Shown here: piece by piece, positions 8,401 through 52,586 of the stretch | How the letters are laid out: each line of letters opens with the position of its first letter | Position numbering within the stretch: the stretch's first letter is position 1 | Assembly: GCA_964500005.1 (NCBI GenBank) | Contig: CAZCMP010000002.1 | Coordinates: 128,934-192,933, forward strand | Length of the DNA: 64,000 bases | Source: an uncultured Thermococci archaeon | Lineage (GTDB): Archaea > Methanobacteriota_B > Thermococci > Methanofastidiosales > Methanofastidiosaceae | Direction of reading: 5' to 3' | Translations under genes and position numbers: made by a program | Notes under the pieces: generated by a model | Database searches by the model: none | The model's input: the letters and a program-made list of their open reading frames with translations, nothing else | Told to the model about the DNA's origin: nothing

Positions 8401-8401
8401 A

Positions 8402-9380: not shown

Positions 9381-11240
9381 TCAACTTTGTATCTTTTTCA
9401 ATATAGCCTCAGGATCCCTAGTATATTCTTTAATTACATTTCCCACGTCTCTATAATTAACTATGTTGTTTTCAGCCATCCAGCCTAATACAAGAGATCT
9501 CCTGTTTATTTCTTCCCATACCTCTTCTTGAGTCATGCCCCTGGATACGGATATTCTCTTCACTATGCTACTCTCTTTTGTATCATAAACAAATTCATCG
9601 GGCCCAGGATCCCATCTGAAAACTGTTTGATAAATAGGCTCTCCTTTTTTTAGATCCATACCAGTTATTTCAATTACTTCTTTTACTCTCCTGATTGCTT
9701 TTCCTTCTATTTTTGCATGGGTTAATAAGAAACAAATGTTTAATGATTGAAGAAGTGCTGGAGAGAGGTTAATGGGCCTAGTTGTAAGTCTATTAATTAG
9801 AGCCTCCATTGAATCGGCATGTATTGTTCCCATACCTGGGTGACCTGTTGCCATACCAGTAAACATGACGTTTGCTTCGGCCCCTCTAATTTCACCAACT
9901 ACTAGATAGTCTGGCCTCTGTCTTAATGCAGCTCTTAATAGGTCAAACATGTCAACTTCCCCCTGTTTCTTCCCCTCAGTATTAGTAGCTGATCCAAATC
10001 CAGATCTAGTAACTGCTGGCAACCAATGCTCTTGCGGAAGATTCAATTCTTGGGTATCTTCAATTGTTACTATCTTTGCTTCAGGAGGTAAAAATATGGC
10101 AAGTGCATTAAGCATAGAAGTCTTACCAGTGGCAGTTCCACCAAAAACAAGCGTTGAGGCGGTGTAGGAGTGCTCAAGTGCCAACCACATATATGCAAAT
10201 ATTCTTGGTGGACAAGACTTGTAGTTTATCAATTGTATTGGGGTCATTGGATCAGTTTTAAATCTTCTGATGGTAAAAGTGGGACCATGTTGTGTTACTT
10301 CTCTGCCAAATGTAGCTTGGACTCTAGAGTTATTTGGTAATCTTCCATCAAGTAGAGGTTCTGCTACTGAAATGTGTCTGTTACATCTCTGCGCCATCTT
10401 AATTATTATACTGTTAGCATCATCATCCGAGCTAAAGAGTATATTTGTAGGAAGGGAACCATATTTTGCATGATAGACATAAATTGGTATTCCAGTTCCA
10501 TCACAACTTATATCTTCTATTAGGGCATCGTGGAAAAAGGGTTCTATTGGTCCAAGCCCAATATAATTTCTTCTTAAATAATACATTATCTTTTCAAAAG
10601 CGTCTGGCTCTAAGCGTAAGTTTAATTCATCGATAATTTCTAAAGTTTTGTTTTCTAGGTAATCAACTAATTCACTCTTTTCTTGGAGGCTTTTAAAATC
10701 TACTTCAAGTTCTTCTTGAATAATTCCTTGGATTGTACTGAGTCTAGTTTTTTCTAGTTCTGAAAGTTCAGGTTCTTCGATTAGATATGTTAATTTAGAT
10801 AATTTTTCGTCCCATTTTATTCTTGCATAAGCATATGGATCTATTAATGGGTATCTTTCATTAAATCCTGTATAATCTTGTGTCCTCCATTTTTGAGGGA
10901 TAATAAGTATATCTTGATCCTTCATTATTACTCTCTTTTCTTCTTCTAATGAAGGAAGCCTCCCCCCTTGTATTGTAACAGGGCCAGATATAACAAAAGT
11001 TGTAGTTCCAGCTGCAGGTGCAACTTCTTTTGGAACTTGATCTATAGAATCAATCTTTATTTTTTCAGAAGTACCCTCTTTTTGTTTTTTTGATTCCCCT
11101 AAGGATACGCCTTCTTTCTTTAAAAAGTCAACTTCACTCTTTTTTTTGAGCTTCTCATAATTTGATTTAGGTTCATTATCTAGTAAAACATCTGATTCTT
11201 TTAATTTTTTTATTAACTTGAGAGCCCCTCTTTTTTTCAT
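9381..11240 (-). CDS. type II/IV secretion (FlaI/TadA/PilB/VirB11-family) assembly ATPase with a ~190-aa Lys/Glu-rich N-terminal extension
   Basis: Walker A GGTATGKTSMLNAL, Walker B DYLVVGEIRGAEA, His box MGTIHADS. Confidence 0.85.
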   Translation of the reverse strand: MKKRGALKLIKKLKESDVLLDNEPKSNYEKLKKKSEVDFLKKEGVSLGESKKQKEGTSEKIKIDSIDQVPKEVAPAAGTTTFVISGPVTIQGGRLPSLEEEKRVIMKDQDILIIPQKWRTQDYTGFNERYPLIDPYAYARIKWDEKLSKLTYLIEEPELSELEKTRLSTIQGIIQEELEVDFKSLQEKSELVDYLENKTLEIIDELNLRLEPDAFEKIMYYLRRNYIGLGPIEPFFHDALIEDISCDGTGIPIYVYHAKYGSLPTNILFSSDDDANSIIIKMAQRCNRHISVAEPLLDGRLPNNSRVQATFGREVTQHGPTFTIRRFKTDPMTPIQLINYKSCPPRIFAYMWLALEHSYTASTLVFGGTATGKTSMLNALAIFLPPEAKIVTIEDTQELNLPQEHWLPAVTRSGFGSATNTEGKKQGEVDMFDLLRAALRQRPDYLVVGEIRGAEANVMFTGMATGHPGMGTIHADSMEALINRLTTRPINLSPALLQSLNICFLLTHAKIEGKAIRRVKEVIEITGMDLKKGEPIYQTVFRWDPGPDEFVYDTKESSIVKRISVSRGMTQEEVWEEINRRSLVLGWMAENNIVNYRDVGNVIKEYTRDPEAILKKIQS

Positions 11241-11313
11241 ATTCTATTCCTCTAATATTTTTTTTTCTATTAATGTATATAAATAATTATCGGTATTGTA
11301 ACATTATATTTAA

Positions 11314-13746
11314 TTATTGATATACTTTAAAGTTATAATATTGGCTAGTTTCTTTTTTTATGCCGTCTATTTCAAATGAGTAAGTGAATAAGACCAAGTA
11401 ATCGCCAGGTCTCCTTACATAATACTGATTTGTTGAAATAATGGTTGTAAACTCCTCTATGTTTACTCTTCCTGATCTTTCCAATATCGGTGCATATTGG
11501 TAATATGGAACTCTTCTTAATAATACTCTATTTACTTCGTCAGGAGAACTTAATTGAGCATTTCCATCATCATGGAATGGTATGATAGATACTATTTCAA
11601 ATCCTACACCGCCAGAGTAGAATATTTGCCCAGGATACAATTTATTACTCCCATCAATAGTGATATACTCTTCTCCTAGGTCAATTATTCCATTTTTATT
11701 TCCATCATACGTTATTCTAATATATTTGCTAAAAGAATTAACTTCAAACTCGCATAAAATGTTTCCAAGCCAACACTTCTGGCCATTAGCAGGATAATAA
11801 ACATCATATTCATAGAAAAATTGATTATCGATTAATGGAAAACTTACAATTATACCTTCTGGAGTAATAAAAGTAGAATTTGTTTCATAAGTATTAGTTG
11901 GTGTTTTAGAGTCTATAATCAATTTCTGGTTAATAGTATCAAAATTGTATTCCCAAGTATTTATTACTTCATATTCATTGTTCCAACCATAAAATAATCT
12001 AGTATACCCTACAGGGAATCTTTTTTTCTCTGATTCCATATCAAAATACCTGAAGATAACATGCCATTTTTCATCATATCCTAGATAGTTTGTACCATCA
12101 AAAATAACAAGATAATTGCCCAGTATTACGGGATCACCAATCTTGAGAACGATATCATTTCCTAATGGCGGGTCTATTGTAACTAGTGTAGCATTGACAT
12201 ATCCTAATGAATTCTTTTTAGGATATACCCTATATAGGCTACCACCAACTCTAAATTCTCCGTAATCGAATTTATATGCTTCAGTTTGAATTAAGTTCTC
12301 ATCTTTATCTATTCTAACGTCAAGCATTCCATTATTTCTTCTTAGAAAACTTACAGTAGGGGGTGTTATGTCACTTACTATGTATTCCTCTCCGCCTAAT
12401 TGAAATTTGAAACCTTCTTCTATTGGATATGCAGAATTACAAATTAGATTTCCCAAAATATCTCTTTCACACCTTTGAATATCAATCAAATTTTCTTCAT
12501 TTCCCTCATATATGCCTATAATTTTATCATTTGTACTGTCAATTTTAACTTTGTATCTTGAATTCTCTGAGTAAAATACTCCATCTTCTCCGATTAATAC
12601 AACTTTTATAATTTCCCATACGTTTAGTTTGCTTCCCAAGCCTTTTGAATTATTAAAATCTTTATCAGAAATGGGCCCCTCTAAGTCATTATGAATCATT
12701 GTAGTAAATACTACTTTATCCCCATTATAAATTAAGGAGTCTTTTAATCCATTTTGTTTTTGGACGTTTAAACTTAATAGTCCATAACGCAAACCAGGAT
12801 CTTCAATTGGATCAAACCATTGTCTTCTTTTTTCAGTTTCTTGCAGGGAGATTTGTATATTCATTATTACATATCTAACGTAATCATCTTTCTGTCCATT
12901 AATTAGATAATTTATCTCATTAATCTTAATTAAATAGGTTCCCAATAGAAATACATCATTTTCATAAAAGATAGATTTTCCATCCAATGTAACTAACTTA
13001 TCTCCAGAATCTCTTATTTGAACGTAGTTCATACTACCGTCATTTCCTATAAAAAAAGAATAGTTGTCGATAAAAGATGCCCTGTTTTCTATGCTATTCA
13101 TTCCCCCATAAGCGATTCTGCTTTCTCCAATAGTATATGCCCTCTCTCTATAAATTATTCTTGAGCCAGAAGAATAATTGGCTTCTCTAAACAAGACTTC
13201 ATTTTGTTCGTTTTTTATGACATAAGGGTTTGAAGAGCTAGGCTCTCCACCGTTCAAAGGCTCAACAATAAAATTACCTATGTCTGATTGCATTTGGTAT
13301 ATTTTTGGATTATCCTGCGTTTTCGTTATTCCAATCAATATTTTTCTATTAAAATTTCCTACTTCAAAAATAGATGGGCCCGTAAATAGTATATTATCAT
13401 CAAAATCAATATTACTTGACTTAACTACTTCATTTCCAACATCAAGTTGGGATAAGTAATAATTAAGTTCTTTTTCTTCTATTTCATAATGGGCAGAATA
13501 AATACTAGAAAATGCTCTATGAGGAGTAGTTAAATCTCCTGTAGCATAAATATTTTCTAAAGAATTTCTAGAAGTTTGTCTTATTGAGCTTTCAATATAA
13601 CTTGCAATGTAAGGTATATCTGAGAATGGGACGTCCTCTAAAGTTTGAGATATTTGCCTCGATGACATCAAGGAATACTGTATCACAAAAAGTGAGAACA
13701 CTACTAAAACTGCTGCAAAGATGAAAAATTGGGATTTATTGTTCAT
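11314..13746 (-). CDS. secreted/surface protein (810 aa) with putative class III (prepilin-like) signal peptide
   Basis: N-terminus MNNKS|QFFIFAAVLVVFSLFVIQ fits the pattern K-S followed by Q then a ~20-aa hydrophobic helix. It is Asn/Tyr/Gly-rich and its start overlaps the upstream gene by 4 nt (ATGA). Confidence 0.5.
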   Translation of the reverse strand: MNNKSQFFIFAAVLVVFSLFVIQYSLMSSRQISQTLEDVPFSDIPYIASYIESSIRQTSRNSLENIYATGDLTTPHRAFSSIYSAHYEIEEKELNYYLSQLDVGNEVVKSSNIDFDDNILFTGPSIFEVGNFNRKILIGITKTQDNPKIYQMQSDIGNFIVEPLNGGEPSSSNPYVIKNEQNEVLFREANYSSGSRIIYRERAYTIGESRIAYGGMNSIENRASFIDNYSFFIGNDGSMNYVQIRDSGDKLVTLDGKSIFYENDVFLLGTYLIKINEINYLINGQKDDYVRYVIMNIQISLQETEKRRQWFDPIEDPGLRYGLLSLNVQKQNGLKDSLIYNGDKVVFTTMIHNDLEGPISDKDFNNSKGLGSKLNVWEIIKVVLIGEDGVFYSENSRYKVKIDSTNDKIIGIYEGNEENLIDIQRCERDILGNLICNSAYPIEEGFKFQLGGEEYIVSDITPPTVSFLRRNNGMLDVRIDKDENLIQTEAYKFDYGEFRVGGSLYRVYPKKNSLGYVNATLVTIDPPLGNDIVLKIGDPVILGNYLVIFDGTNYLGYDEKWHVIFRYFDMESEKKRFPVGYTRLFYGWNNEYEVINTWEYNFDTINQKLIIDSKTPTNTYETNSTFITPEGIIVSFPLIDNQFFYEYDVYYPANGQKCWLGNILCEFEVNSFSKYIRITYDGNKNGIIDLGEEYITIDGSNKLYPGQIFYSGGVGFEIVSIIPFHDDGNAQLSSPDEVNRVLLRRVPYYQYAPILERSGRVNIEEFTTIISTNQYYVRRPGDYLVLFTYSFEIDGIKKETSQYYNFKVYQ

Positions 13747-14903
13747 AACTTTTTCCTCCCCATTGCCAAAGAAACATAATACGCTTTTGTTCCTGTGGTA
13801 TCTGATATCGAAACTATTCTCTTTGAAGATACGGAAGTTTCATAGTAACCTGGGCTTTCTATATTAATTATATTATTCCTAAATGGTATAATATTAATCA
13901 CTAAATGACCATTTATTCCATCAAAAGAAATCAAACTAATTCTTCCTTTATATCCAAGTCCTTTTTGTCCTTGTAAGAAAAATACCCAAGTATCCTCAGT
14001 TAAATCTTCTAAATATGTTGCATAGATTAAAGGCTCGCTTATTTTTCTTTCAACTTTTAATTTATCTAGATTTCCATTTTCACTTAATTCGAATCTGAAA
14101 TATTGGTCAAAAATAGGAACAATCTTAGTACTTTCATCAAAGTTTATTGAGATTGTTTCATCTATAAGGGCTAAAGAGATAGAATTGCCATCCTTTGAAA
14201 TGTTTGAAATTTGATATGTAAAGTAGTAAGTAACTCCTTCCACACTAGTTTTAAATTCAATTGTGTCCCCTAACCTAAAAGGAGTTGAGCTAGAAAGTTT
14301 AGTTGATGAAGAGGTAAAATCAATTCCTTCCATATTAAAATAAACAGTATCATAACCAGATACTTCATCAATTATATCTACAATCAAAATAGCATATACA
14401 GTAATTGGATTTCCATTTGGTAAAACAAAAATATATTCTCCTGGCCAACCTTCTTCTGATTGATGGTATTTCCATACCATGGAACTATTTTGGACGGTAT
14501 CTCCTACAACGTACCCATTCGATAGATTTTGTCCATCTTTAACTCCTTCACCAAAAGTTTCTATAAATATTTCATTTTCAAGAGAATAGATGTCAAATTT
14601 ATAAGCGTAACCTGGGGGTATAAGAGAATCTAATTTAATCTTAATATTTTCATCTGAAGGATTATTAATAAATTGACTTATTAAATTATTATTACTATCT
14701 TGGCCTTTCTCGATTACGACTAAGATATCTTCGGCCGTATTTTTAGCATTCAATACTTCCCAAGAAGGATTAACAGAATAGGTTGCACCAGGCGAAGTTA
14801 AAATAAAGGAAATCCCAATTATCATAATGACAGCGGCGATTATTGCTTCAAATGTTCTCATTACTCCTTTGTTGTTTAAGAACATAACTTCTTTCCCCCC
14901 CAC
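13743..14903 (-). CDS. pilin-like protein (386 aa) with putative class III signal peptide
   Basis: N-terminus ...NNKG|VMRTFEAIIAAVIMIIGISFIL with Glu at +6 after Gly. It overlaps the upstream gene by 28 nt. Confidence 0.5.
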   Translation of the reverse strand: MGGKEVMFLNNKGVMRTFEAIIAAVIMIIGISFILTSPGATYSVNPSWEVLNAKNTAEDILVVIEKGQDSNNNLISQFINNPSDENIKIKLDSLIPPGYAYKFDIYSLENEIFIETFGEGVKDGQNLSNGYVVGDTVQNSSMVWKYHQSEEGWPGEYIFVLPNGNPITVYAILIVDIIDEVSGYDTVYFNMEGIDFTSSSTKLSSSTPFRLGDTIEFKTSVEGVTYYFTYQISNISKDGNSISLALIDETISINFDESTKIVPIFDQYFRFELSENGNLDKLKVERKISEPLIYATYLEDLTEDTWVFFLQGQKGLGYKGRISLISFDGINGHLVINIIPFRNNIINIESPGYYETSVSSKRIVSISDTTGTKAYYVSLAMGRKKL

Positions 14904-15802
14904 ATGATAAGGACAATTCTTTTTTCTGTTAAATTACCAAATTCTTCTACTAAAGCCACTCTAGAAATAACTAACACTATATCTGAATAACTTCTTCTTG
15001 CACCAATTATTTTGTCTGCGGAGTCAATATTCAAAATTTCGGCGCCTTGTCCTGATTTATAAATGTCCGTGACAATATATTTTTTAGATTCTAAACTAAA
15101 GTTTTGGTCTTTAATGAATCCAGACCTATTAATTCCACCAGCTATTCCATAAAAACCCCTATCAACTTCATCTTGAAAATCTCTATTTTGATTTACATCA
15201 ATAAAAAGCCGATCATATTCTCCATCCTTATTTTCGTCTGCAATCAAAAATTCATATGGTTTGTCTGAGATATACACCTTATCTGTATTGAAAAATAGTT
15301 TATCTGCAACAGAATATCCGTCTGGCAAAGAATAATTAAAATCGTCAAGGTCTGACTGGTTTATAATAGCAATTGTGGGCACCAGTATGTATGTGGATGA
15401 AATCATTATCTGTAAATCATAAATTGAAGATTTAGCGTTATAATCAATTAATCCTAATTTATTTAGTAATACAATATAGCTATTCTCAGAATTATTCAGA
15501 GGGCATACTGGATACATGTATGTATCCTCCCTTGATGCAAAATCTACTAGTTTATCATAAGATACAATATGATCTCTAGAAACTATACCATAAGTAGGGT
15601 CTGATATGATTTTTTCAATTGAAGAGAAGGCAGTAAGGTGAACATCTACATATTCACTAGTTTCAATTACGGGATTAATTGAATTGGCGGCTACATAAAC
15701 TACATATAGAAAAGCGATAGTAAAAATACCCAATGCTATGATGTTATCTATTATATCTTGCCCTTTTCTTTGGCGCTTAAACTTAATTAAAATTTCAATC
15801 AT
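14876..15802 (-). CDS. pilin-like protein (308 aa) with putative class III signal peptide
   Basis: N-terminus MIEILIKFKRQRKG|QDIIDNIIALGIFTIAFLYVV is a textbook archaeal prepilin-type (KGQ + hydrophobic) signal. Confidence 0.55.
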   Translation of the reverse strand: MIEILIKFKRQRKGQDIIDNIIALGIFTIAFLYVVYVAANSINPVIETSEYVDVHLTAFSSIEKIISDPTYGIVSRDHIVSYDKLVDFASREDTYMYPVCPLNNSENSYIVLLNKLGLIDYNAKSSIYDLQIMISSTYILVPTIAIINQSDLDDFNYSLPDGYSVADKLFFNTDKVYISDKPYEFLIADENKDGEYDRLFIDVNQNRDFQDEVDRGFYGIAGGINRSGFIKDQNFSLESKKYIVTDIYKSGQGAEILNIDSADKIIGARRSYSDIVLVISRVALVEEFGNLTEKRIVLIMWGGKKLCS

Positions 15803-15804
15803 AA

Positions 15805-18800
15805 TTACCCCACAGATGGGTTTGGAGTCAAATATGCTCCATAGCTAGTGATAACTACATATTTATTTTTTGAAGTACTTGAGATTGTTCCATAAATATT
15901 TATTCCCCTAGTCTCTCTTAGGTACTCAATTTGTGGATTATTTGGGTCATATATTCTCAATTTATTGCCTAATCCTTCAATTATATAATCTCTACTGCCT
16001 ATTTTATTAGGAATATCCAAACTTATCCATATGCCTTCTTCGATCTGAATATTTTTTGTGGGCGCAGAAGTATATGCCATTATATTATTAAAAAGTTTGA
16101 TGATTCCTCTGTCATAAAAAGTTAGTAAATATTTATTGTTTAGTATGTCTCCATATATAGACTCTAAAGCAAAAGTATGTTCAACTCTCCTTCCTTCATA
16201 AGTGTCAATATCAAGCTGAATAAGTTCTTTTGTATAGAGGGCTCTTTCATCATTAATATCATTATTTTTATTTGTATCTATTTTAATCCAAGAATCAGTG
16301 AAATATGAGCTGAAAATATTCTGGTATGATGGCGATCCAAGTCTAAAGTCGGATAAGAAAACAAATTGATCGTTATAAGGATCTGTATCTCCTTTGAAAT
16401 CTATAGCTTCGACTTCAGACATCTTGTACGTGCTTGGATTTAGATTAGTTAGTGTGTTTGCAGTTCCATGTAAATCATGTCTATTAAAACTCCACCTAGT
16501 ATAATTACTGGCTGCATCGAGAGAAATTAATCTTCCGTCAAAAGTCATAAAAACTATTTCTGATTTCCCATCGTTATCTATATCATCAACTACTACTGCA
16601 GAGCGTATTGGACTTTGAGGATTTGTTGTATATTGCCAATTGTTAACAATGGCATTTTGGCTTGCCTGATCAGTATCCCTATATGAATGACAATATAAAA
16701 TGCCGTTTTCATTTCCTAGTAAGATATCGGAAAAAAACGAGTCATTGTCTCTGCTATAAGTAGTATAATTATTTATTTCTACTATTACTGGAGTTGCGTA
16801 AGAGTGATTGATTCTATCAATTCCTTGCCAGCCCCCATTAATCGCCTCATCTTGGACTATATGCGTTCCATCTAAATGTGCCACTTTAATGTTTGAGCCT
16901 ACGGGAACAAATACTTGAGGGCCTCTGTGTGATTGACCGTTAGGTGAATGTATAACGGGGCTCCCCCCAATGGTCTCATTAGACCTAGAATTTATTCTAG
17001 CACCGTTTGCATTTGTAAATTGATTTCTATAAATTATAGATCCATTACTTCCGTCAAGCATTACCGTAAATATTCTATTATTATTATCAGTTCCAGTATG
17101 GACATTTGATATTATTATGTCATCATAATCATTTTTATAATTTGTTTGTGCGATAGCCGGAGATGAGCATATATAAGATAAAGGATTTTGAGATGTTGTT
17201 ATACGATTTGGAAAGCCTAAACTTCTAGTCCATAATGGAATTAAAGAATAGTTTCCTCCTACGTCTCTAGTTCCTCTATATGCCCTAACATTTCCATCAA
17301 TTGCACCCCATACAATGTCTAGTTCGCCATCACCTTTTATGCCCATATTTCCATTGCCGTTAAAATGCCCTACTGCCGGTGAAGAGGTCGGAATCATGAA
17401 CTCTACAACGTTAGAGACCACTCTCCCAAAGAAACGGGGATCATAAGTTTGTGATGTTGATTGTTTTAATAATAAAGAGTTATTTATTCCACTATACACA
17501 TATAGTGTGTTGGTAATAGTTGGATTACTTGTAAATACTTTAGTAGTAGTAACATAGCTTAGATTTTCAATTCTTGTATCTACTAGAATAATATCTTCAT
17601 ATCCGTCTTTGTTAATATCTGCTAAAATTGGAGAAGACATTAACGCTCCATCTATTGGTAAACTTCCTAATAAGTCGCCATTCATACCATCTAAAATAGA
17701 AACTGCTGATGGTAAAGTATTAACTGTCATTATTTTATTATTGTAATTGAAAACTGACCGTATATTCGCTCCGCCAATAATCACTTCCAACGAATTGTCA
17801 TGATTTATATCTCCAATTGCTGGAGATCCAGAAATGCCTGCATAATTATAATAGATATCTCCATCCCTAGTGGGGTTATTTAAAGTAAAAAGTGATTTTT
17901 TCCAGATTATACTTGGTAAGGAGCTATCGCCCCTTATTACTGTTACATTTCCATCCCTTAGTCCAACAACAATATCAATTACGCCGTTACCGTCAACATC
18001 GGCACTAGAAGGAGATGAAACATTCATGAAAATAGGATAACTATCTCTGTTAATAATATAGCTATTATCAAACTTAGTTTCTTTGAAAGCATATTGATTG
18101 TCTAATTGAATCGACCATTTTTGACTATGAGAATCATCTCTAGTCCTATAACTCGGTATTATCGCTTTTTTTCCATTTTCTTCTATATCAAAATAGATAT
18201 AATAATATCTAGTTTGGCCAGGATAAGTTTGAGAATAGGTTATGCCTTGAGTTTCTTCAGTAGCCCCCATAACAAAATAAACGTGAAATGGTGGGTATTC
18301 TTGCCAGAACAACAAATCAGGAGCAGGAGATCTTCTTTCATAGAGCCTAAAAATAACATTCTGATACCATGTTAAAGTTCCATCATCAGGAACATCCATT
18401 TTTAACCTTATTTTATTCTGACCTTTATAAAAATATTTTTGAGGCAATACAACACTATACCCATCAGGGCCATCGTTTGGCCCGCCATCATATGGGTCCC
18501 AATAACCAGGCATATTTGTTGGATTGGAAGCAGGAGGCAAATGCACTAGCAATTCCTTAACTGGAATATCGTTAATAGTAATATTAAAATCGGTGTTAAT
18601 TCCTGGGGATGGTTCATCTTTATGTTGAGCTCCTGTTGGTATTTCCATTTCGAGCCTTATGTCCTTAGGATCATTTAATTCAAAAAAAATTGTGTGCTCG
18701 TGAAACTCTTTTGGAACTGCTCTATAGCCTGCCTCTTCAAGATTGGGCCTAAATGGGTAACTTTGACTTGGTATTTCCACAAGGTTATTACAGTCCCCGC

Positions 18801-20259
18801 CTATCAGTTCAACTACTCGGATAGAATCAAAATCAATAGTGGTAGTTTCAAGATTAAGGAATCCTTGATTGGCTAATTTATTAATTTCATCTGTTGGGTC
18901 AATTATTACTTTAATTGGCTCATTTATGTGGGTAATACTGCCTGAATTTACTGCTACAATTTTTCTAAAATGCCAATCTTCTCCACTGCCTAGACTAGTT
19001 GGATCCCACCAAGGGCAGACCGTTGTATTACAGTCTATTAAAGCTTTAACGTCTATTGGGATTGTAGTAGCAATTATTTTACCTGCACCCCAATTTGATA
19101 TAATTAATGAAGGATTACTATTATCTTTATTCCCAAATGGTGTTTCTCGAATTAGAATATCGGCGTTTGGACCATCAAAATATGGTTCTAAAATGGTCGC
19201 TTCAGCAGAATAATAACTACCTGCGATCTCATAAGGTAAAAGATTTGATGTTATATTATGTTGTTTTGATACGCCAATTGTATCATAGTTTCCTTTATCA
19301 AAAATTACACTTATTGGTAAAAAATCATATTTTGTTTTTTGATCATTATATTGGGATAAAAGAATTATTGAGCCTCCATCTTTAACATAGTCGCTTAAAA
19401 CTTGTTTATTTTTGAAATCACTTAATGAGTCTAACATAGTGGAATTAGACGGTATAAGGATATTTGTACAATATCCTATATATCTATCATCAATTCCATA
19501 TGAATCTGAATTTAGTATATAGTAATTAAAAGGATATACGGAATATGTGTTATTTCTACTATCAAAGTATTGGCTCCAATCTTTTTTAGGGTATTCAAGT
19601 AAAAAACAACTCTTTGCTAGAGATTCTGGAGGATGGCCTGCATCACCTATTACTGCTGATTTAAAAGTTGGGGTTAAGTAGACTATATAATCTTGAGTAT
19701 TTTCTGCTGGCTGTTTATCCATCTTGAAGAATTGAAAATCTCCAATAATATTCTTATCTCTAAGTGTTGAATTAGTAGGGTTAGAGTATATGTTGTATGC
19801 TCCATCAATATAAAATCTACTATTGGCGGCGACATTATGTTTTTCGGCGCCTTCTGGGCTTAAAATTAAATCGCCATTTTGATTTTTAGGGTATACCCTA
19901 ATATAATTCCAATCAGTATCATGCTCTACTTTGAATAATTCATTTTCACCAACAAAATAAGTATTGTCGTTCAAATTAATTTGTTTTAAAGGAATTACTA
20001 TATTTGTTTCAACTAGTGTCCTTTCAATCCATGCTATCTCGTTGTAAGCAACGACATTTTCTATATAAGAGGCAATATTCTCAAAACTTTTTTTGTCTAT
20101 TTCGTCAGAAAAGCTTTTAGAAAAAGTTTGGGAAGTCCTCCAAAAGAATACCATTGCTAGAAGAAGTATTGCTATGAGCATTATGGCCATTACTACGTGC
20201 ATCTGAGATTTTTTGTTTTTAATAAAATTATTATATCGCATTTCATGATTATTTTCCAT
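15805..20259 (-). CDS. giant (1484 aa) surface protein with class III-like signal peptide and FG-GAP/VCBS beta-propeller repeats
   Basis: N-terminus ...NKKS|QMHVVMAIMLIAILLLAMVFFW. Repeated Dx[DN]xDGxx[DE] calcium-binding-like motifs (DVDGNGVIDIVVG, GDINHDNSLEVIIGG, ADINKDGYEDIIL, DDIDNDGKSEIVFM). Confidence 0.6.
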   Translation of the reverse strand: MENNHEMRYNNFIKNKKSQMHVVMAIMLIAILLLAMVFFWRTSQTFSKSFSDEIDKKSFENIASYIENVVAYNEIAWIERTLVETNIVIPLKQINLNDNTYFVGENELFKVEHDTDWNYIRVYPKNQNGDLILSPEGAEKHNVAANSRFYIDGAYNIYSNPTNSTLRDKNIIGDFQFFKMDKQPAENTQDYIVYLTPTFKSAVIGDAGHPPESLAKSCFLLEYPKKDWSQYFDSRNNTYSVYPFNYYILNSDSYGIDDRYIGYCTNILIPSNSTMLDSLSDFKNKQVLSDYVKDGGSIILLSQYNDQKTKYDFLPISVIFDKGNYDTIGVSKQHNITSNLLPYEIAGSYYSAEATILEPYFDGPNADILIRETPFGNKDNSNPSLIISNWGAGKIIATTIPIDVKALIDCNTTVCPWWDPTSLGSGEDWHFRKIVAVNSGSITHINEPIKVIIDPTDEINKLANQGFLNLETTTIDFDSIRVVELIGGDCNNLVEIPSQSYPFRPNLEEAGYRAVPKEFHEHTIFFELNDPKDIRLEMEIPTGAQHKDEPSPGINTDFNITINDIPVKELLVHLPPASNPTNMPGYWDPYDGGPNDGPDGYSVVLPQKYFYKGQNKIRLKMDVPDDGTLTWYQNVIFRLYERRSPAPDLLFWQEYPPFHVYFVMGATEETQGITYSQTYPGQTRYYYIYFDIEENGKKAIIPSYRTRDDSHSQKWSIQLDNQYAFKETKFDNSYIINRDSYPIFMNVSSPSSADVDGNGVIDIVVGLRDGNVTVIRGDSSLPSIIWKKSLFTLNNPTRDGDIYYNYAGISGSPAIGDINHDNSLEVIIGGANIRSVFNYNNKIMTVNTLPSAVSILDGMNGDLLGSLPIDGALMSSPILADINKDGYEDIILVDTRIENLSYVTTTKVFTSNPTITNTLYVYSGINNSLLLKQSTSQTYDPRFFGRVVSNVVEFMIPTSSPAVGHFNGNGNMGIKGDGELDIVWGAIDGNVRAYRGTRDVGGNYSLIPLWTRSLGFPNRITTSQNPLSYICSSPAIAQTNYKNDYDDIIISNVHTGTDNNNRIFTVMLDGSNGSIIYRNQFTNANGARINSRSNETIGGSPVIHSPNGQSHRGPQVFVPVGSNIKVAHLDGTHIVQDEAINGGWQGIDRINHSYATPVIVEINNYTTYSRDNDSFFSDILLGNENGILYCHSYRDTDQASQNAIVNNWQYTTNPQSPIRSAVVVDDIDNDGKSEIVFMTFDGRLISLDAASNYTRWSFNRHDLHGTANTLTNLNPSTYKMSEVEAIDFKGDTDPYNDQFVFLSDFRLGSPSYQNIFSSYFTDSWIKIDTNKNNDINDERALYTKELIQLDIDTYEGRRVEHTFALESIYGDILNNKYLLTFYDRGIIKLFNNIMAYTSAPTKNIQIEEGIWISLDIPNKIGSRDYIIEGLGNKLRIYDPNNPQIEYLRETRGINIYGTISSTSKNKYVVITSYGAYLTPNPSVG

Positions 20260-20268
20260 GTGAACATC

Positions 20269-23200
20269 TCAATCCAATAGTAGTTCATGACCACATGCCC
20301 AGATTATGATATTGCTCTCAAGATTTCTAGCCAAATCCCCATATACTTCATCTTGGTGGAAATTCTGTCCGTTTGGATTAGTATTATTCTTATATCTGTC
20401 CAAATCCATTGTGGTAACTACAACACTTCCCTCAAGATTATTAAAAGAATTTCTTCTTTCCTTAATTAGAAGAACTGGGCCTCCATTTGCTTGTGGTGCT
20501 AAAACTGCACCCCCCACAAGTTTTCTTGCAAGGCCGGGAGGAAGTGTTTCCGTGGGTGGGTCTCCCCTCTCCTGGTATATTTTTTGGAAAGTTTTTAAGT
20601 TAACCATAACGTTGTTTCCAGCCCAACCTGTGTCTATTAAATCAAAATATCCATGTGCACACATAGTAAATTCGTTTGGTAGTTTATTCATTATTGGATT
20701 TTCTAGGGACAATTTTTCTAAATTAAACATACGCCCAGATAAATCTAGATCCATGTTAACTGTCATCCAATCAGGAGGTAAGAAGGGAGGTCCCCCTCCA
20801 CGCCCTGGAGGCCAAGTTTGACCCGTTGATGCATCTGGATCAAATTTGAATACAGATGGAATCTTACCATGATCCCATTCGATCTTATTTCCATCTTCAT
20901 CGATGTAAAGAATTCCAGACCATTGCTCTGAGACTACAGTGTTTCCTTGTTTATATTTTGTCCACCCATAATAAGCTATAGGAACATTTCTATGGACATC
21001 ATTTGTCTGGCCGTAAATTTTATAGTTCAGCCCAACTGGTTCATTTGATACTCTGCCAATTGAGAGATCACTTCCATAAAATGTCGGTAGCCAAGAATAT
21101 TTTCCGTAATAATAGTTGTTTGCACCTAATGTATATTTATATTTTGAAGTTATTAAATAAGTATCTGCCCAAGAGTCCCAATCCCGATCATTTACTACGG
21201 TTACTATTACCGGATTATTAAGATCACCAGCATAGTCTGGAACTGTAAATGTAATTCTCTTATCACCTAGAGGATTATTGACTTTAAATCCATATGTAAA
21301 TAGATTTCCGTCTGTACACCCACCTGCAGAATATGTTACTGCAATGTCTGCTGGGCCTCCGGGAAGAGAATCTGCAGTTCTTACAAGCTTTGCAACGCCG
21401 CCAACTCCGTCAGGTACATATCTAATTTTTCCCAATTTTCCTATTGTAATATTTATTTCTTTGATTGCATCATAAGAATTTAGATTGTTTGAACACTGAA
21501 TTGCATCAAAGCTAAGGTAAACTAGTTCTCCTTCAGAAGCCCTATTGCTAGATAAAGATAAGTTTTGTATTACTGGTGACTGTGAAGTAGTGATATAGTA
21601 CCATGTCCTAGAAGATTTATTCCCAATTTTATCCGACGCTTCAACTGAAACATTAATCTTATTCGTATTCTCCCATGGCCATGATGGTTTGTAAATTACT
21701 TCATATCCATTCGCTACTTGTGTTATATAGAGGCTATCCGTTACTTCCATATTTATAACACTTGAATTAGAGTAAGATTGACCTAAGATAAACATCCTGA
21801 TTGAATTTCTATCCACCCCGGCGTTTACATCTGTTATAGTAACTCTTATAGGGGCGGTAGGTAGTGCTGTTGCGTTATTAGCAGGTATTTCCCCTGTAAA
21901 AGTAGGGCCATAATTCTTAACGCGTATTATTTTATCATAAACTGGTGAAGACCCTACATTTCCTGCAAGATCGGTCATTGTTATCTGAACATCGTAAAGT
22001 CCATTTGGAACATTTGGTATATCTAATACACCAATTATTGTATGTGTACCGCCAGCACTAACATTGTTCATATTAGGTGTATTGATGACAGTTGTAGTTT
22101 GTCCCACTAATGTTGAACTATCATCATACAGCTTAATTGTGTAGGAAGCGGGATATAGTTCAGTATATGTAAAAGTTATGTACGCTTTATCTCCGGTCTT
22201 TGCATTTTGTGGAGTGCCAGGTATAGGGTCACTAATAGTAATGGTATTTGGAGGCACTGTATCGTATACTACCCATTTAGTTGTTATAGCATCATATGGA
22301 GAAGTATCACCATCAGCTTTAATCCTTATTATGTTAACTCCAGCGCTTAAATTTACTCCAAAATTAATATTGGGGCCTGAATTAGAACCTATTGGAGAAG
22401 CATTAATGTCAAGTGTAACATTTCCATTTGTTGAAGTTGTTCCAGATATATTAATCGGAGAGCTATTTGTAAAAGTCAAAAATGCCTGAGGTTGAGTTAT
22501 AGTCACAGTTGGTCCTTGAGAGTTAATATTGAAACTCCAAGGATATACTAAGAAATTACCCAAATCATCCTCAACATATACAGATGCTACATGAGTTCCT
22601 TCAAATTGATTTATTCCTGGGGCGTATGAAACAGAACTACTTCCAGAACCTCCTGTAACCCCAGTAAATACTCCATCTAAATAAAGTCTAGACCATTGTA
22701 TCCCCGCCCCAACATCATTATAATCGATACTAATCTGGGGGGGATTATCACTTATTGTTCCTTGAGGAGAAGGATTTGAAGTTAGAGGTGAAGATGTATC
22801 TTTTAATATTGTTATGGTCTGAGTTAATGAATTTTGAGCTCTGTCATATGTAAGTATGGAATAATCAACATTTCCTTCAGAAAGCGGTAAATAATGATAA
22901 TATGTATGTATGTCGCCCCATAGTGGATTACCTTGATGCTGTAAATTTAGAGTTCCATAAGTCGATCTTTGAATCCCACTCAATCCATCTTGAACTGAAG
23001 AATTTATTCGTGTATATGGGCTAGTTGTTACCAAGAATAAGCTAGAATTTATAGGAGACATGGGAGGGGCTAGAGAATCTTTTCTAATTTCTATCTCAAA
23101 CTGTAAAGGATCGTAAGGACTAACAGGATTGAGAAAAGTTGAGCGTTCTAAATAATTTGCAGAATCATCAGTTGCTTTTACGGAAACTTGGTAAATCCCA

Positions 23201-25173
23201 TCAATAAATGTATCGCCTATGGTCCACTGCCCGGTGTATGTGCCATCGCTAGCCAATCTATCTTTGCCCAAACCATTATCATAAATTATTGTTCCTCCTT
23301 GAATAACTCCGCTCTGTAAAACGTTAATGCCTACGTAGTTAACATTGCTTGCATCTTTTACATATGCATAAAATACTGCTTTCCCTCCTGAATCATTAAT
23401 CCAAATTACGGGATGAGGAAATTCAGAAGGGTTCTGGCCGTCTTGCCCATCTGGAACAATGTTAACGTTTTGTATTCTTGGTGGATCAACGTCATTAAAT
23501 AAAGAGGGATAAGGTAAGTACAATGGATTGTTTAAATCATCAGGATCAATATTATCAAATTCAGAGAACTGCCCAAAAACTATAAGGCTACGGGCATAAT
23601 CAACACCTTTGAATTTGAATCTCCCTAATGAAACAAAATTAGAAAGTGAAGTCCTATGTATATCCTTATTTAATTTTTCCAAAACTTTATTATCATTTGT
23701 AGCCCCGGAAGCAACTATTACCAAAGAAAAATCTTCATAATTCAGTACATTTGGATTTCCTCCAATTCCGGCAAGATCTTTAAACATTAGGTAATCTCCA
23801 TAATCTGTAGGGGATTTAGTAAAAGATGGATCTAAAAGCCACTCTAATGGGTATATTCTAAGGCCTTGCGGAGGATCGCTTCCGGGATAATTAAACCAAT
23901 TGCCACCACCTGTTCCTATTCCTTCGCCGCTAGAAGAATCTGTTCCGCCGTAAACAACAAAATAATTGGATTGGTATGTGCCTCCAACTGTATTATCAAA
24001 TGCATCCATTACATCAAACAAAAGATTATCATAATCACTATCATTGACATTAATTCCCTCTCCAAGGGTATCGTCTAACAAAACAATTGCAATAGGCACA
24101 TTCTCAATAATATCTTGTTTTGTTAATTTATACAAAGGTATATTAAAAAATCCGGGGCACTCACAAATTATAGGAGAGGTGTCACAAACACCGCCTTCAT
24201 TAAAGAATGCTTCTGCTGAGTTCCAAAAATCATTGTCGCATTTTCCTGTACTACTATTCATGTTTACTTTCCATGTGCCAAGATTTTTATTAAAATCCTT
24301 ATGGTATATATCAGTTTTAGCATAAATAGTTGATGAGCCATCATTTTCTTTCATTGCGTAAGAAGGTAAGGAAACCTGGACATATAATTCCAGATCTAAA
24401 ACACCATCTGATTTTGGGATTTTTACCGCATACCTTCCTTGGGAGTTAGTTTTTGTTACTGCAACAATTTCAGATTTTTTGTTAATGAAGGTAATCTCTG
24501 CCCCTGCAAGAGGTGCGTCATCAATTGCATCGAATATTTTATCATTTTGTGGGGAGTTGTCCATTGAAGGCTGGTTCTCATCTTTAAGCCCATCATTATT
24601 GCCTCCTTCAGTATTATCATAAACGTACCCCTGTAATGTCCAACTATCTCCTGTAATTGGAATATCGGGTGATAACCCCAAAAGGACGTCATTTGACCCC
24701 TTGTTTTGGATATAAATTCTATATTTGCCCGCACTCAAAAGCTGAAATCCAGATAAAATTTCTATTTCCCCGCCATACTGAAGCTTAATATTAACTGCAC
24801 TTCCACTAAAATAGGTATCCATACCCATCTGTTGGGATACAGATTGTACATTTGGTGCGTCCATTAAGAACCAAATTATGTCTTGATTCTGATCCGCACT
24901 AATAGTACCCTTATCAAAATTAATATCAATGTAACGTTGTGCGCCTTCCCCTTCAAACCTAACTTCTCTAATCTTTTTATCAAGTTCTAAAAAAGCACTC
25001 TGCATTGAATTAATTCTTGAAACGTCTCTTGACCTTTCAATCTGGGGTGCTGCAAATTGGTATGCAGCAAAAACAGCCGCAACTGTAATTGCGAGAATTA
25101 GCATTACTGTAATTACTTCTACTTGGGCCTTTTTTGATACTTGCCCTCTTTTTCTTATTATCCTAAAACTCAT
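20269..25173 (-). CDS. giant (1634 aa) surface protein with class III-like signal peptide, CarboxypepD_reg-like and Ig-like beta-sandwich regions
   Basis: N-terminus MSFRIIRKRG|QVSKKA|QVEVITVMLILAITVAAVFAAY. Segment LAGAEITFINKKSEIVAVTKTNSQGRYAVKIP resembles a carboxypeptidase-regulatory/transthyretin-like domain. Long Thr/Ser/Asn/Gly-rich repeats. Confidence 0.55.
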   Translation of the reverse strand: MSFRIIRKRGQVSKKAQVEVITVMLILAITVAAVFAAYQFAAPQIERSRDVSRINSMQSAFLELDKKIREVRFEGEGAQRYIDINFDKGTISADQNQDIIWFLMDAPNVQSVSQQMGMDTYFSGSAVNIKLQYGGEIEILSGFQLLSAGKYRIYIQNKGSNDVLLGLSPDIPITGDSWTLQGYVYDNTEGGNNDGLKDENQPSMDNSPQNDKIFDAIDDAPLAGAEITFINKKSEIVAVTKTNSQGRYAVKIPKSDGVLDLELYVQVSLPSYAMKENDGSSTIYAKTDIYHKDFNKNLGTWKVNMNSSTGKCDNDFWNSAEAFFNEGGVCDTSPIICECPGFFNIPLYKLTKQDIIENVPIAIVLLDDTLGEGINVNDSDYDNLLFDVMDAFDNTVGGTYQSNYFVVYGGTDSSSGEGIGTGGGNWFNYPGSDPPQGLRIYPLEWLLDPSFTKSPTDYGDYLMFKDLAGIGGNPNVLNYEDFSLVIVASGATNDNKVLEKLNKDIHRTSLSNFVSLGRFKFKGVDYARSLIVFGQFSEFDNIDPDDLNNPLYLPYPSLFNDVDPPRIQNVNIVPDGQDGQNPSEFPHPVIWINDSGGKAVFYAYVKDASNVNYVGINVLQSGVIQGGTIIYDNGLGKDRLASDGTYTGQWTIGDTFIDGIYQVSVKATDDSANYLERSTFLNPVSPYDPLQFEIEIRKDSLAPPMSPINSSLFLVTTSPYTRINSSVQDGLSGIQRSTYGTLNLQHQGNPLWGDIHTYYHYLPLSEGNVDYSILTYDRAQNSLTQTITILKDTSSPLTSNPSPQGTISDNPPQISIDYNDVGAGIQWSRLYLDGVFTGVTGGSGSSSVSYAPGINQFEGTHVASVYVEDDLGNFLVYPWSFNINSQGPTVTITQPQAFLTFTNSSPINISGTTSTNGNVTLDINASPIGSNSGPNINFGVNLSAGVNIIRIKADGDTSPYDAITTKWVVYDTVPPNTITISDPIPGTPQNAKTGDKAYITFTYTELYPASYTIKLYDDSSTLVGQTTTVINTPNMNNVSAGGTHTIIGVLDIPNVPNGLYDVQITMTDLAGNVGSSPVYDKIIRVKNYGPTFTGEIPANNATALPTAPIRVTITDVNAGVDRNSIRMFILGQSYSNSSVINMEVTDSLYITQVANGYEVIYKPSWPWENTNKINVSVEASDKIGNKSSRTWYYITTSQSPVIQNLSLSSNRASEGELVYLSFDAIQCSNNLNSYDAIKEINITIGKLGKIRYVPDGVGGVAKLVRTADSLPGGPADIAVTYSAGGCTDGNLFTYGFKVNNPLGDKRITFTVPDYAGDLNNPVIVTVVNDRDWDSWADTYLITSKYKYTLGANNYYYGKYSWLPTFYGSDLSIGRVSNEPVGLNYKIYGQTNDVHRNVPIAYYGWTKYKQGNTVVSEQWSGILYIDEDGNKIEWDHGKIPSVFKFDPDASTGQTWPPGRGGGPPFLPPDWMTVNMDLDLSGRMFNLEKLSLENPIMNKLPNEFTMCAHGYFDLIDTGWAGNNVMVNLKTFQKIYQERGDPPTETLPPGLARKLVGGAVLAPQANGGPVLLIKERRNSFNNLEGSVVVTTMDLDRYKNNTNPNGQNFHQDEVYGDLARNLESNIIIWACGHELLLD

Positions 25174-25251
25174 AGGATTACCTTGAGTATATAATAAAAA
25201 ATAATAAAGATTATTTAATGTTTATCCTATGTTTTGCGAATACCTCAAAGA

Positions 25252-26472
25252 TTAGATCACTATCTTCTTTCTCGAAAACTCTGTTCCCATAACTATGGCA
25301 AGGGCTGAAGAGAATATAAGTATCAATGAAAGCGCTAGGTCGAGGAATACCCCAGGATCAGGTAAAGAAATCCCTAAAGGTCCTTTGAACACAAGGAATA
25401 GTATGCCTGAAATAATCCACAATGCACCGATAACATAGAGCACAGCGTTATCGCTTCCCTTAGAACCAGATTGTGTTCTTGCCTTCATTGCAAAGAGTAT
25501 TGGCGGTATACCTGTAATCATCATTACTATGTAGAAAACAACTCCCATAAATCCAGTTCTCAGAACGTTAAATATTGAAGATATTGGATTGTTTGCAGTA
25601 AATATCCCCATACCATTGAACAAAAAGAATATCGCAAATATGAGCCATATGAATCCTAAGAGATAAAGTGTTATTGGTGCAAAGATAGAACCAGAAGCTT
25701 TTGTTTTTGTTTCGCCTTTGAGATCTTTCATAAGCTCTTTGGTATCGATTCCAAGCTCTTCTGCCTCTCGTAAAATCTCATCCAATGACGGCTCCTCGTT
25801 AATTAATTCAGTCCCCATCCCAGAATCTATTCTCTTTTTTGAGAAAATTGTTTCAATCCTTTCTTCTGGAAGAACTTGATTTACTTTTTTTAGGAATTCA
25901 CTTTCAGAAAAATCTTCAAGTGCATCGTCTATTACCTTTTCATGTTTTTCCGTAATTGAAGGTTCTGCTTTCTCTTCAGAAATTTGTTTTTTAATGTCTT
26001 CAGCTATTTTTCTTTCGAATTTCTCTTCAAGTTCGTACTGTGACTTTCTTGGTAATTCTTGTTTCGTTGCAAAACTCTGCCCCATTGTCTTAAAAGTTTT
26101 CTCCATCTCCTGAAGTTTTTCTGTGTTCATTTTGATTGATTCAGCTACACGTTCCATAGTTGTGGCAACGTTTGATAGAGATTCCATCAATTTGTCCTCT
26201 TCGTTTTCTGCGTCTTCAGAACTCATGCTTGATTCTAATAGGTTAATCAGTTTCTCTAGTCTTCCAACAAGGGGATCTTCATAAGCCCCGCCCTCTTCGA
26301 CTGCGGCAGCGCTTAATATTTCTTTTATCTCATCGAGCTTCGTGACGATTTCCTTTGATTCTAGTGGAACACCGCTGTATCCCATTCGAGGCATGATCTG
26401 CATGAAAGTATCAAGCTGTTGCTTTAGCTTTACATACTCCATCTTGAGGTCATCATAATCATTGCCAACCAT
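25252..26472 (-). CDS. membrane protein: ~235-aa acidic coiled-coil cytoplasmic region followed by ~5 TM helices
   Basis: Glu/Lys-rich heptad-like N-terminal region and hydrophobic C-terminal third. It is the first gene upstream of the pilus-like operon (78-nt gap). Confidence 0.45.
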   Translation of the reverse strand: MVGNDYDDLKMEYVKLKQQLDTFMQIMPRMGYSGVPLESKEIVTKLDEIKEILSAAAVEEGGAYEDPLVGRLEKLINLLESSMSSEDAENEEDKLMESLSNVATTMERVAESIKMNTEKLQEMEKTFKTMGQSFATKQELPRKSQYELEEKFERKIAEDIKKQISEEKAEPSITEKHEKVIDDALEDFSESEFLKKVNQVLPEERIETIFSKKRIDSGMGTELINEEPSLDEILREAEELGIDTKELMKDLKGETKTKASGSIFAPITLYLLGFIWLIFAIFFLFNGMGIFTANNPISSIFNVLRTGFMGVVFYIVMMITGIPPILFAMKARTQSGSKGSDNAVLYVIGALWIISGILFLVFKGPLGISLPDPGVFLDLALSLILIFSSALAIVMGTEFSRKKIVI

Positions 26473-47756: not shown

Positions 47757-47764
47757 AAAAACAC

Positions 47765-52581: not shown

Positions 52582-52586
52582 AAAAT

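Follow-up and report, generated by a model that had tools for sequence, protein, structure and literature searches.

Two giant pilin-like proteins with adhesin-type modules in a conserved gene cassette beside type IV filament assembly genes of Methanofastidiosum

Archaeal type IV pilus loci have been described that combine two TadC genes with genes for at least five minor pilin-like proteins and for two large proteins, putative tip adhesins (PMC4858521), and for the loci of clade 1 a likeness to the bacterial tip complexes of minor pilins and PilY1 has already been drawn (PMC4858521). The clade 1 'Epd-like' and clade 2 loci of Makarova, Koonin & Albers (2016) correspond to System 1 and System 2 of Sivabalasarma & Albers (2026; bioRxiv 10.64898/2026.04.22.720090). 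Neither of these works (the former being PMC4858521) mentions the Methanofastidiosa, and we found no paper on pili of Methanofastidiosum. In bacteria, modular type IV pilins, such as PilB and PilC from S. sanguinis, CofB from enterotoxigenic Escherichia coli (ETEC) and GspK, consist of a small pilin module with grafted vWA, lectin or beta-repeat domains (PMC8179133); they are predicted from their bulk to sit at the tip, are assigned an adhesin role, and reach at most 860 aa in the survey (Raynaud et al., 2021, PMC8179133). Here we describe a locus in a stretch of 64,000 nt (positions 128,934 to 192,933 of contig CAZCMP010000002.1, hereafter the window, to which all coordinates refer) from Candidatus Methanofastidiosum, an uncultured archaeon of the Methanofastidiosaceae. 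It comprises five tightly packed genes, designated A to E, directly upstream of genes for a FlaI/GspE-family ATPase and a split TadC/FlaJ platform. We consider it probable that A and B, the first two genes of this cassette, code for giant modular pilin-like proteins and that an archaeal type IV filament (TFF) machine handles the products of all five genes, A to E, as substrates. The design is a known one in an unusually large version and does not amount to a new kind of system. Split platform genes, together with several minor pilin-like proteins and with large proteins resembling adhesins, are already documented in archaeal TFF loci (PMC4858521; bioRxiv 10.64898/2026.04.22.720090). What is new is the conserved A-E cassette, the build of both large subunits from conserved terminal frames around a variable insert, the pilin-like propeller adhesin, and the size.

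A preliminary description of this DNA, made from the sequence alone, had reported two neighbouring giant open reading frames (ORFs) of 1634 and 1484 aa. Both were confirmed on the minus strand, exactly where it had placed them and with the same spacing of 9 nt. The gap between B and C is 2 nt, and the genes that follow overlap; the GC content of A and B (0.31-0.37) is the same as that of the flanks. The cassette and the motor genes are as follows, with an arrow marking the predicted cut in each N-terminal motif:

20269-25173, minus strand: gene A, 1634 aa, giant modular pilin-like protein; 16 full-length homologs with 48-100% identity, all from Methanofastidiosum, DUF7289 matching 16/16 at E ≤ 0.01.
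15805-20259, minus strand: gene B, 1484 aa, second giant pilin-like protein, with beta-propeller; 16 homologs with 47-100% identity, metagenome orthologs of 1452-1502 aa.
14876-15802, minus strand: gene C, 308 aa, N-terminus RKG↓QDIIDNIIALGIF (RKG↓QDIIDNI...), motif kept in orthologs; 31-33% identity to sister-lineage C; single N-terminal transmembrane (TM) segment.
13743-14903, minus strand: gene D, 386 aa, N-terminus NNKG↓VMRTFEAIIAAV (NNKG↓VMRTFEAII...), motif conserved; weakly DUF7288-like (E 0.002-0.06 in four lineages).
11314-13746, minus strand: gene E, 810 aa, pilin-like N-terminus NNKS↓QFFIFAAVLVV, motif kept in orthologs; single N-terminal TM segment.
9381-11240, minus strand: type IV filament assembly ATPase, 619 aa; T2SSE match with E 1e-31, PilB3_C match weak.
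7558-9376, minus strand: split platform, two T2SSF genes (324 and 280 aa) corresponding, by domain-model matches, to the N and C halves of FlaJ/TadC.

The predicted masses of A and B are 179 and 167 kDa, with a pI of about 4.6-4.9 (4.6 for A), and their sole hydrophobic segment is N-terminal (residues 15-43 in A, 16-44 in B), there being no other TM-like segment. The same plan, one N-terminal hydrophobic helix without a C-terminal anchor, extends to all of A to E, whose sizes range from 35 to 179 kDa and add up to ~0.5 MDa. The best PDB match of the ATPase was GspE from A. fulgidus (2oap, E 7e-109), with FlaI in second place (6e-77); its score against the FlaI model was 394 bits and did not reach the cut-off of 550.

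The locus shares with euryarchaeal TFF loci the FlaI/GspE-family ATPase, the two TadC-like platform genes, about five class III 'minor pilin' genes and two large putative adhesins. In the euryarchaeal loci the major pilin is encoded elsewhere, and we suppose the same for the window system. It differs from them in that the large proteins themselves have a pilin-like N-terminus and in that both are built as frame plus insert. Unlike clade 1/System 1 (Epd) loci, the window locus has no EppA/EpdA peptidase and no MinD/FleN, domain scans of A, B and their homologs found no DUF2341, and the +5 Glu that together with +1 Gln defines the Epd type (PMC4858521, PMC3875500) is present in none of the five cassette proteins, +1 Gln being present in four.

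The case for A to E as filament substrates starts from their N-termini. Each has a short basic leader ending in K-[G/A/S] ahead of the hydrophobic helix, and these K-[G/A/S]↓[Q/V] motifs are conserved across Methanofastidiosum as well as in the orthologs from a sister lineage (loci L015-L017, see below). By this sequence pattern, all five carry the design of an archaeal class III signal peptide. B, C and E did not match any of the pilin N-terminal models DUF7289, TIGR02537 and PF07790 (Pilin_N). The leaders of the two giant proteins are:

25126-25173, minus strand: A residues 1-16, basic leader MSFRIIRKRGQVSKKA, predicted class III cleavage after A16 (KKA↓Q); K15, A16 and Q17 invariant in 16 homologs.
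20206-20259, minus strand: B residues 1-18, leader ending KKS↓Q; KK[SA]↓QM[HN]VVMAIMLIAILLA conserved in homologs.

The common N-terminal design, noticed earlier in both proteins as K/R-G/S-Q followed by a hydrophobic stretch, is conserved in their homologs as KKA↓Q in A and KK[SA]↓Q in B. Of the two cleavage motifs first proposed for A only one stands, because the sequence [KR]KA↓QVEVITV is invariant in 16/16 homologs (KKA↓QVEVITVMLILAITVAAVF in window A), whereas the upstream KRG↓Q varies among them (RGP, KGL, KRP); KKA↓Q is therefore the preferred candidate, and KRG↓Q was rejected. The N-terminus of window B, KKS↓QMHVVMAIMLIAILLLAMVFF, is likewise kept in its homologs, and reads NKKG↓QSEVI and NRKS↓QIGVI in sister lineages.

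The N-terminal module of A belongs to a family of mostly small archaeal proteins of pilin-like type. A profile of residues 1-191, searched against 1.84 billion representative proteins (E ≤ 1e-3), identified 341 relatives with a median length of 193 aa, mostly 160-250 aa, a far richer result than the 5 proteins given by an earlier homology search with this profile; the alignment starts at residues 2-12 in almost all among the matches listed. In the family alignment (A6) there is K/R at position -2 in 127 of 135 sequences and G/A at -1 in 101 of 106, after a leader with a median of 5 residues, followed by a hydrophobic stretch of about 25 residues and, at +27, a proline that hardly varies. This logo is that of a canonical archaeal class III signal peptide, as predicted from the alignment. 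One member bears the NCBI name 'archaellin/type IV pilin N-terminal domain-containing protein', and two relatives of A, P0041 (33 bits) and P0042 (27.0 bits), meet the DUF7289 (PF23960) cut-off of 27. We found no mention of DUF7287-7289 in the literature. A T2SSE gene and two T2SSF genes lie beside family members in five out of six distinct loci (L013, L015, L016, L017 and L019), and the sixth, L020, stops before any machinery could show. Among 148 newly returned family proteins, 15 exceed 500 aa and contain Big_1/Invasin_D3, Laminin_G_3 or Glucodextran_B/Big_13 modules; these long members, with their differing adhesin modules, show a modular-pilin principle in Archaea as well. Outside Methanofastidiosum, none of the relatives among the matches listed is longer than 1210 aa, or than 1488 aa if the full-length form of one partial match is taken. 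It is thus plausible, as was first suggested, that A and B are the largest pilin-like proteins known, at 1484-1634 aa against the 860 aa of the bacterial survey (PMC8179133).

In locus L020 (1-3685; GCA_030594585.1, JAUVEX010000004.1) an ORF listed as 5428 aa runs off the locus, and just downstream of it lie a gene for a DUF7289 pilin-like protein of 240 aa and several small genes without annotation. The product of this ORF would be another very large protein associated with the family.

The N-module of A is predicted to have the 'lollipop' fold of pilins, with a long N-terminal helix on a beta-sheet head. In an AlphaFold2 (AF2) model of the 974-aa ortholog P0188, obtained from a 138-sequence alignment and mapped onto window A, an N-terminal helix of 60 residues (5-64) is followed by a beta head (strands 69-180), both with a predicted local distance difference test (pLDDT) score of 85-96. 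A further beta-sandwich was modelled with the same confidence (85-96), an alpha/beta domain with a pLDDT of 50-90, and the last strands and C-terminal helix confidently, at 71-92. Behind its leader, window A can be divided into five parts:

24616-25125, minus strand: A residues 17-186, pilin module (hydrophobic alpha-1 helix and beta head); best-conserved part of A, mean pairwise identity 0.75-0.87.
24277-24537, minus strand: A residues ~213-299, transthyretin-like/CarboxypepD_reg/CnaB-like beta-sandwich.
23569-24153, minus strand: A residues ~341-535, alpha/beta domain with a ThuA/class I glutamine-amidotransferase-like fold.
21274-23490, minus strand: A residues ~562-1300, variable insert, a stalk of about seven Ig-like domains; Big_13, Glucodextran_B, DUF4625 and Big_3_3 matches in homologs; least conserved part of A, mean pairwise identity 0.34-0.55.
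20272-21156, minus strand: A residues ~1340-1634, conserved C-terminal frame (GKYSWLP..DLSIGRVS; LLIKERR..DLDRYKNN; terminal helix).

The transthyretin-like module had been recognized before and is probably real: the CarboxypepD_reg (PF13620) match falls on exactly the peptide then quoted, although its score is below the cut-off. Also the Ig-like character of the long stretches that follow was confirmed, in that Big_13 matches 15 of the 16 A homologs (best E 4.9e-12), window A itself lying below the cut-off. By contrast, the supposed abundance of N-glycosylation sequons was not found, N-x-S/T occurring as often as composition predicts in the two proteins (18 vs 19.6 expected, and 17 vs 19.2). 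Searched against the PDB, the profile of the A family returned nothing even at E ≤ 1, and neither an S-layer domain nor a C-terminal membrane anchor was found in A or B (Pfam, NCBIfam, hydrophobicity). For the ThuA/amidotransferase-like domain we infer no catalytic role. Separately, a clan-CD/gingipain-like peptidase was considered from the C-terminal 'ACGHE' and an upstream 'HG', and was rejected because the motif is not kept in sister orthologs and no enzyme family matched.

Gene B has a corresponding architecture, with a beta-propeller in the place of the stalk:

18955-20205, minus strand: B residues 19-435, conserved N-terminal frame (helix and a region of probably alpha/beta type); 27.6% identity over residues 10-435 to the 1158-aa B ortholog from L017; conservation 0.63-0.76.
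16495-18027, minus strand: B residues ~745-1255, FG-GAP/PQQ-like beta-propeller with about eight blades; least conserved region of B, 0.28-0.50.
15808-16251, minus strand: B residues 1337-1484, conserved C-terminal frame; 31% identity to sister-lineage B C-termini; conservation 0.66-0.81.

A GATase1_like match in the B ortholog from L017 was very weak (E 0.09). The FG-GAP-type propeller of B, which had been proposed from its acidic repeats, scored above the Pfam gathering cut-offs (FG-GAP_3, 39 vs 26.9 bits; FG-GAP, 26 vs 22.1 bits), both models match 16/16 B homologs, and a PDB profile search with the B family identified propellers only (Bagel designs, BamB and integrin alpha-4). The number of repeats needs qualification. 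At least six copies of Dx[DN]xDGxx[DE] had been counted; the strict motif occurs twice (residues 881 and 1226), three times if [DN] is accepted at position 5 (adding 754) and four times in a loose calcium-loop version (the fourth at 817), and a figure of about six is reached if degenerate loops are admitted. Counted by eye from their 'SP' starts (748, 811, 875, 958, 1031, 1099, 1154 and 1216), the blades are about eight, not seven, and the acidic loop is retained in about six of them. The FG-GAP-type loops probably bind calcium.

A large propeller adhesin encoded with a set of minor pilins is also found in bacteria, where PilY1/PilC and FimU-PilVWX are proposed to form a calcium-dependent tip adhesin and a priming complex. 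PilY1 differs in not being a pilin. The propeller of B is FG-GAP/PQQ-like, has about eight blades and is fused to a pilin-like N-terminus, and the PilY1 propeller family (PF05567/IPR008707) did not match window B and matched only one of 16 homologs (E 0.0026). The differences from bacterial modular pilins are of another kind. The pilin module of A is of the archaeal DUF7289 family, not of IPR012902, and the domains added to it include an Ig stalk of roughly 740 aa that lies inside a conserved frame and is not simply appended.

Conservation of the locus was examined in 11 genome loci and about 15 metagenome loci of the Methanofastidiosum type. The order 406-A-B-C-D-E-ATPase-TadC-TadC, where 406 is a gene for a 406-aa protein, is found in every Methanofastidiosia locus of sufficient length. 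Among these loci, one closely related genome aside, the full-length ATPase is 81-88% identical, and A and B 43-58%, a faster divergence that is as expected for exposed proteins. In the sister lineage the order is ATPase-TadC-TadC-A-B-C-D-E; the ATPase is 69% identical to that of the window and the platform genes 52-60%, and all cassette members are recognizable and have the same kind of N-terminus. The taxonomy of this lineage is uncertain; one of its proteins bears the label 'Methanomicrobia archaeon'. The linkage of the cassette to the ATPase and the split platform thus holds in two lineages despite differing gene order.

The sister lineage also shows how A and B are built. In its A orthologs (974-1488 aa) two regions align, corresponding to residues 12-548 and about 1380-1634 of window A, and the C-termini of P0041, P0042 and P0187 are 25-28% identical to the C-terminal frame; the Ig stalk is absent in P0041 and P0188, replaced in P0042 by Big_1/Invasin_D3 repeats at a different insertion point, and elsewhere shorter. 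In its B orthologs, of 493, 784 and 1158 aa, the alignment is limited to residues ~10-435 and 1337-1477 of window B. None of the three aligns to the propeller part, and scans of the 784- and 1158-aa proteins gave no propeller family; since the sister orthologs have no counterpart, the propeller is confined to Methanofastidiosum in this comparison. Within Methanofastidiosum, too, conservation is lowest in the inserts and highest in the pilin module of A. Because the sister loci keep the cassette, vary or drop the Ig stalk of A and have no propeller in B, these alignments show A and B as conserved N- and C-terminal frames with lineage-specific inserts, the Ig stalk and the propeller, respectively.

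Several loci showed particular features. Between positions 11500 and 24900, from within A through E, the window is 87-99% identical in DNA to another metagenome-assembled genome (MAG; L003, CAZFRW010000013.1), and the flanks (the side of the 406-aa gene and an EF-1-alpha-like gene, and the 5' part of the ATPase gene) are 69-86% identical; at the protein level, B, C, D and E are 96-97% identical, the ATPase 82% and the 406-aa protein 76%. This mosaic suggests that Methanofastidiosum lineages have recently exchanged the pilin-like cassette by recombination. In L018 (6001-12400) gene A is a run of more than ten short ORFs, most likely due to assembly indels and not counted as a pseudogene, and the 151- and 159-aa 'fragments' of A, P0034 and P0036, are the start of such a run, again most likely from assembly indels. 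In L008 (10001-15330) one frameshift splits A into ORFs of 678 and 1140 aa, and its apparent size of ~1775 aa was for this reason left out as a record. Directly upstream of the sister-lineage ATPase gene there is a gene for a zinc-ribbon protein of about 175-207 aa (CPNCK...CPxCG; L015, 3-626; L016, 5690-6217), without counterpart at that position in Methanofastidiosum.

The shared N-terminal design, together with a linkage to the motor that survives the rearrangement of gene order, points to A to E as substrates of this motor. A and B are most likely giant adhesins displayed by the type IV filament machine, since they have a pilin-like N-module and head a conserved cassette beside a pilus-assembly ATPase. 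The original proposal of giant pilin-like proteins with adhesin modules, tied to an ATPase system, was supported by every computational test run; the lack of FG-GAP or beta-sandwich matches that had been named as speaking against it did not occur, and S-layer domains were absent as well (Pfam, NCBIfam). Cleavage, assembly and adhesion we infer from the sequences, and they could proceed as follows. A prepilin peptidase encoded elsewhere would cut after KKA in A and after KKS in B, and the platform and ATPase would then pull the hydrophobic alpha-1 helices out of the membrane and bundle them. A to E would assemble first, as a priming or tip complex, because by analogy their globular parts are likely far too bulky for a filament shaft; such a complex would resemble bacterial GspH-I-J-K, FimU-PilVWX with PilY1, or CofB. 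A filament of a small major pilin, whose gene would lie elsewhere, would push it outward, and the Ig stalk and the propeller would act as adhesins, likely targets being surfaces or syntrophic partner cells in methanogenic sludge.

Several results weigh against this reading. Window A just misses the curated pilin models (DUF7289, residues 16-130, 26.9 bits for a cut-off of 27; TIGR02537, arch_flag_Nterm, 17.2 bits for a cut-off of 20), and for B, C, D and E homology of the N-module to the A family could not be detected beyond the helix: hhalign of the A and B families aligned the N-terminal helix only (probability 16%), and local HMMs from the N-termini of B, C, D and E gave helix-only matches or nothing among the A-family matches. 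An AF2 model of residues 1-562 of window A, from a 16-sequence family alignment, was unusable (pLDDT 35), and the ortholog modelled instead, P0188, from which the structural evidence comes, is 31% identical to window A. Finally, the 64-kb window contains neither a Peptidase_A24 prepilin peptidase gene nor a gene for a small major pilin.

This last result bears on the main rival, to which we give a modest chance. Here A to E would also be processed like pilins, and their five helices would form a short membrane-proximal stub, a pseudopilus made by the ATPase and platform, that anchors an adhesive complex of roughly 0.5 MDa without any separate major pilin. The absence of a small pilin gene extends from the cassette and the window to the sister-lineage cassettes of L015-L017, the five subunits are all large (35-179 kDa), and the Sulfolobus bindosome offers a precedent, since BasEF there mounts proteins with class III signal peptides (bioRxiv 10.64898/2026.04.22.720090). 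Yet archaeal major pilins are typically stand-alone genes distant from the machinery (PMC4858521), and the distant loci with small members of the A family, L013 and L019, do hold additional small pilin-like genes. The window system resembles the Sulfolobales bindosome (BasEF and class III sugar-binding proteins) in having a TFF ATPase and platform that would place large non-filament proteins on the surface. It differs from it in that solute-binding domains are absent from A and B, the cassette neither contains nor directly adjoins an ABC-transporter gene, and the ATPase scores 194 bits for a BasE cut-off of 1000. Carried further, and in our view doubtful, is the idea that the cassette builds an undescribed archaeal surface organelle. 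Its five large pilin-like subunits would form a self-sufficient pseudopilus or tip complex without a conventional major pilin, the propeller adhesin would itself be a pilin, and adhesive modules would be swapped in their frames (and whole cassettes between strains, cf. the L003 mosaic), thereby retargeting attachment to partner cells in syntrophic methanogenic consortia.

That the N-terminal helix is instead an uncleaved type II anchor or an ordinary Sec signal, with A and B being envelope or S-layer-like proteins and the ATPase neighbourhood functionally meaningless, is unlikely. The missing peptidase gene and the position of A just under the curated pilin cut-offs are in its favour. It leaves without rationale, however, the conservation of [KR][GA] at -2/-1 in alignment A6 (127/135 and 101/106), and it disagrees with the linkage of ATPase-TadC-TadC, which outlasts the rearrangement of module order between lineages, with an N-module family that is otherwise pilin-sized and located in TFF loci, with an h-region of 25 residues without AxA site, atypical for Sec signal peptides, and with the lack of a C-terminal anchor and of S-layer domains. 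It is very unlikely that the conserved frame of A (the ThuA/GATase1-like domain and the C-terminal C..GHE region) is catalytic, making A a filament-displayed hydrolase and not an adhesin, since the sister orthologs read WALGYEE or WAIGHEN, so that Cys and in part His are lost, no enzyme match was found in Pfam, NCBIfam or PDB, and ThuA/GIFT-type domains are commonly non-catalytic.

Methanofastidiosum is an uncultured, H2-dependent methanogen that reduces methylated thiols and feeds on the products of its neighbours in digesters and sediments (PMC7382037). Since it lives on the products of neighbouring cells, attachment to partners or particles should matter for its ecology, and the A-E locus provides a concrete, conserved candidate for it. 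The preferred reading of A and B as giant displayed adhesins would, in addition, extend the modular-pilin principle to Archaea at about twice the bacterial size, and their frame-plus-insert architecture could serve to predict or engineer binding specificity. The analysis also provides a working annotation for seven or eight genes that are now 'hypothetical' or misnamed 'PQQ-like' in public records.

One neighbouring gene adjoins the cassette:

25252-26472, minus strand: 406-aa acidic coiled-coil protein with multiple C-terminal TM segments, directly upstream of A; no Pfam match.

It adjoins A in 11/11 Methanofastidiosia genome loci (65-78% identity, mostly about 76%) and has no counterpart in the sister-lineage loci. 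The protein may be a lineage-specific accessory component, its membership in the system being uncertain. In the gap between this gene and A (25174-25251) there is a TATA-like AT-rich box, TTTATTATATA, which ends about 17 nt before the start codon of A, and a second one, TTTATATA, is situated in the gap between E and the ATPase gene (11241-11313) and ends about 33 nt before the ATPase start codon. With such boxes in both intergenic gaps, the pilin cassette and the motor genes may have separate promoters.

The window is archaeal by its gene content. Elsewhere, it contains genes for an archaeosine tRNA-guanine transglycosylase with a PUA domain, a RuBisCO large-subunit homolog (59702-61129, minus strand) and an IF-2B-family protein, possibly a ribose-1,5-bisphosphate isomerase (34965-35951, minus strand), and a long operon (46107-54572, minus strand) with genes for a FAD_binding_2 protein and for an Fe-S flavoprotein that resembles HdrA. 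The RuBisCO homolog and the IF-2B-family protein suggest an archaeal AMP/nucleoside salvage route.

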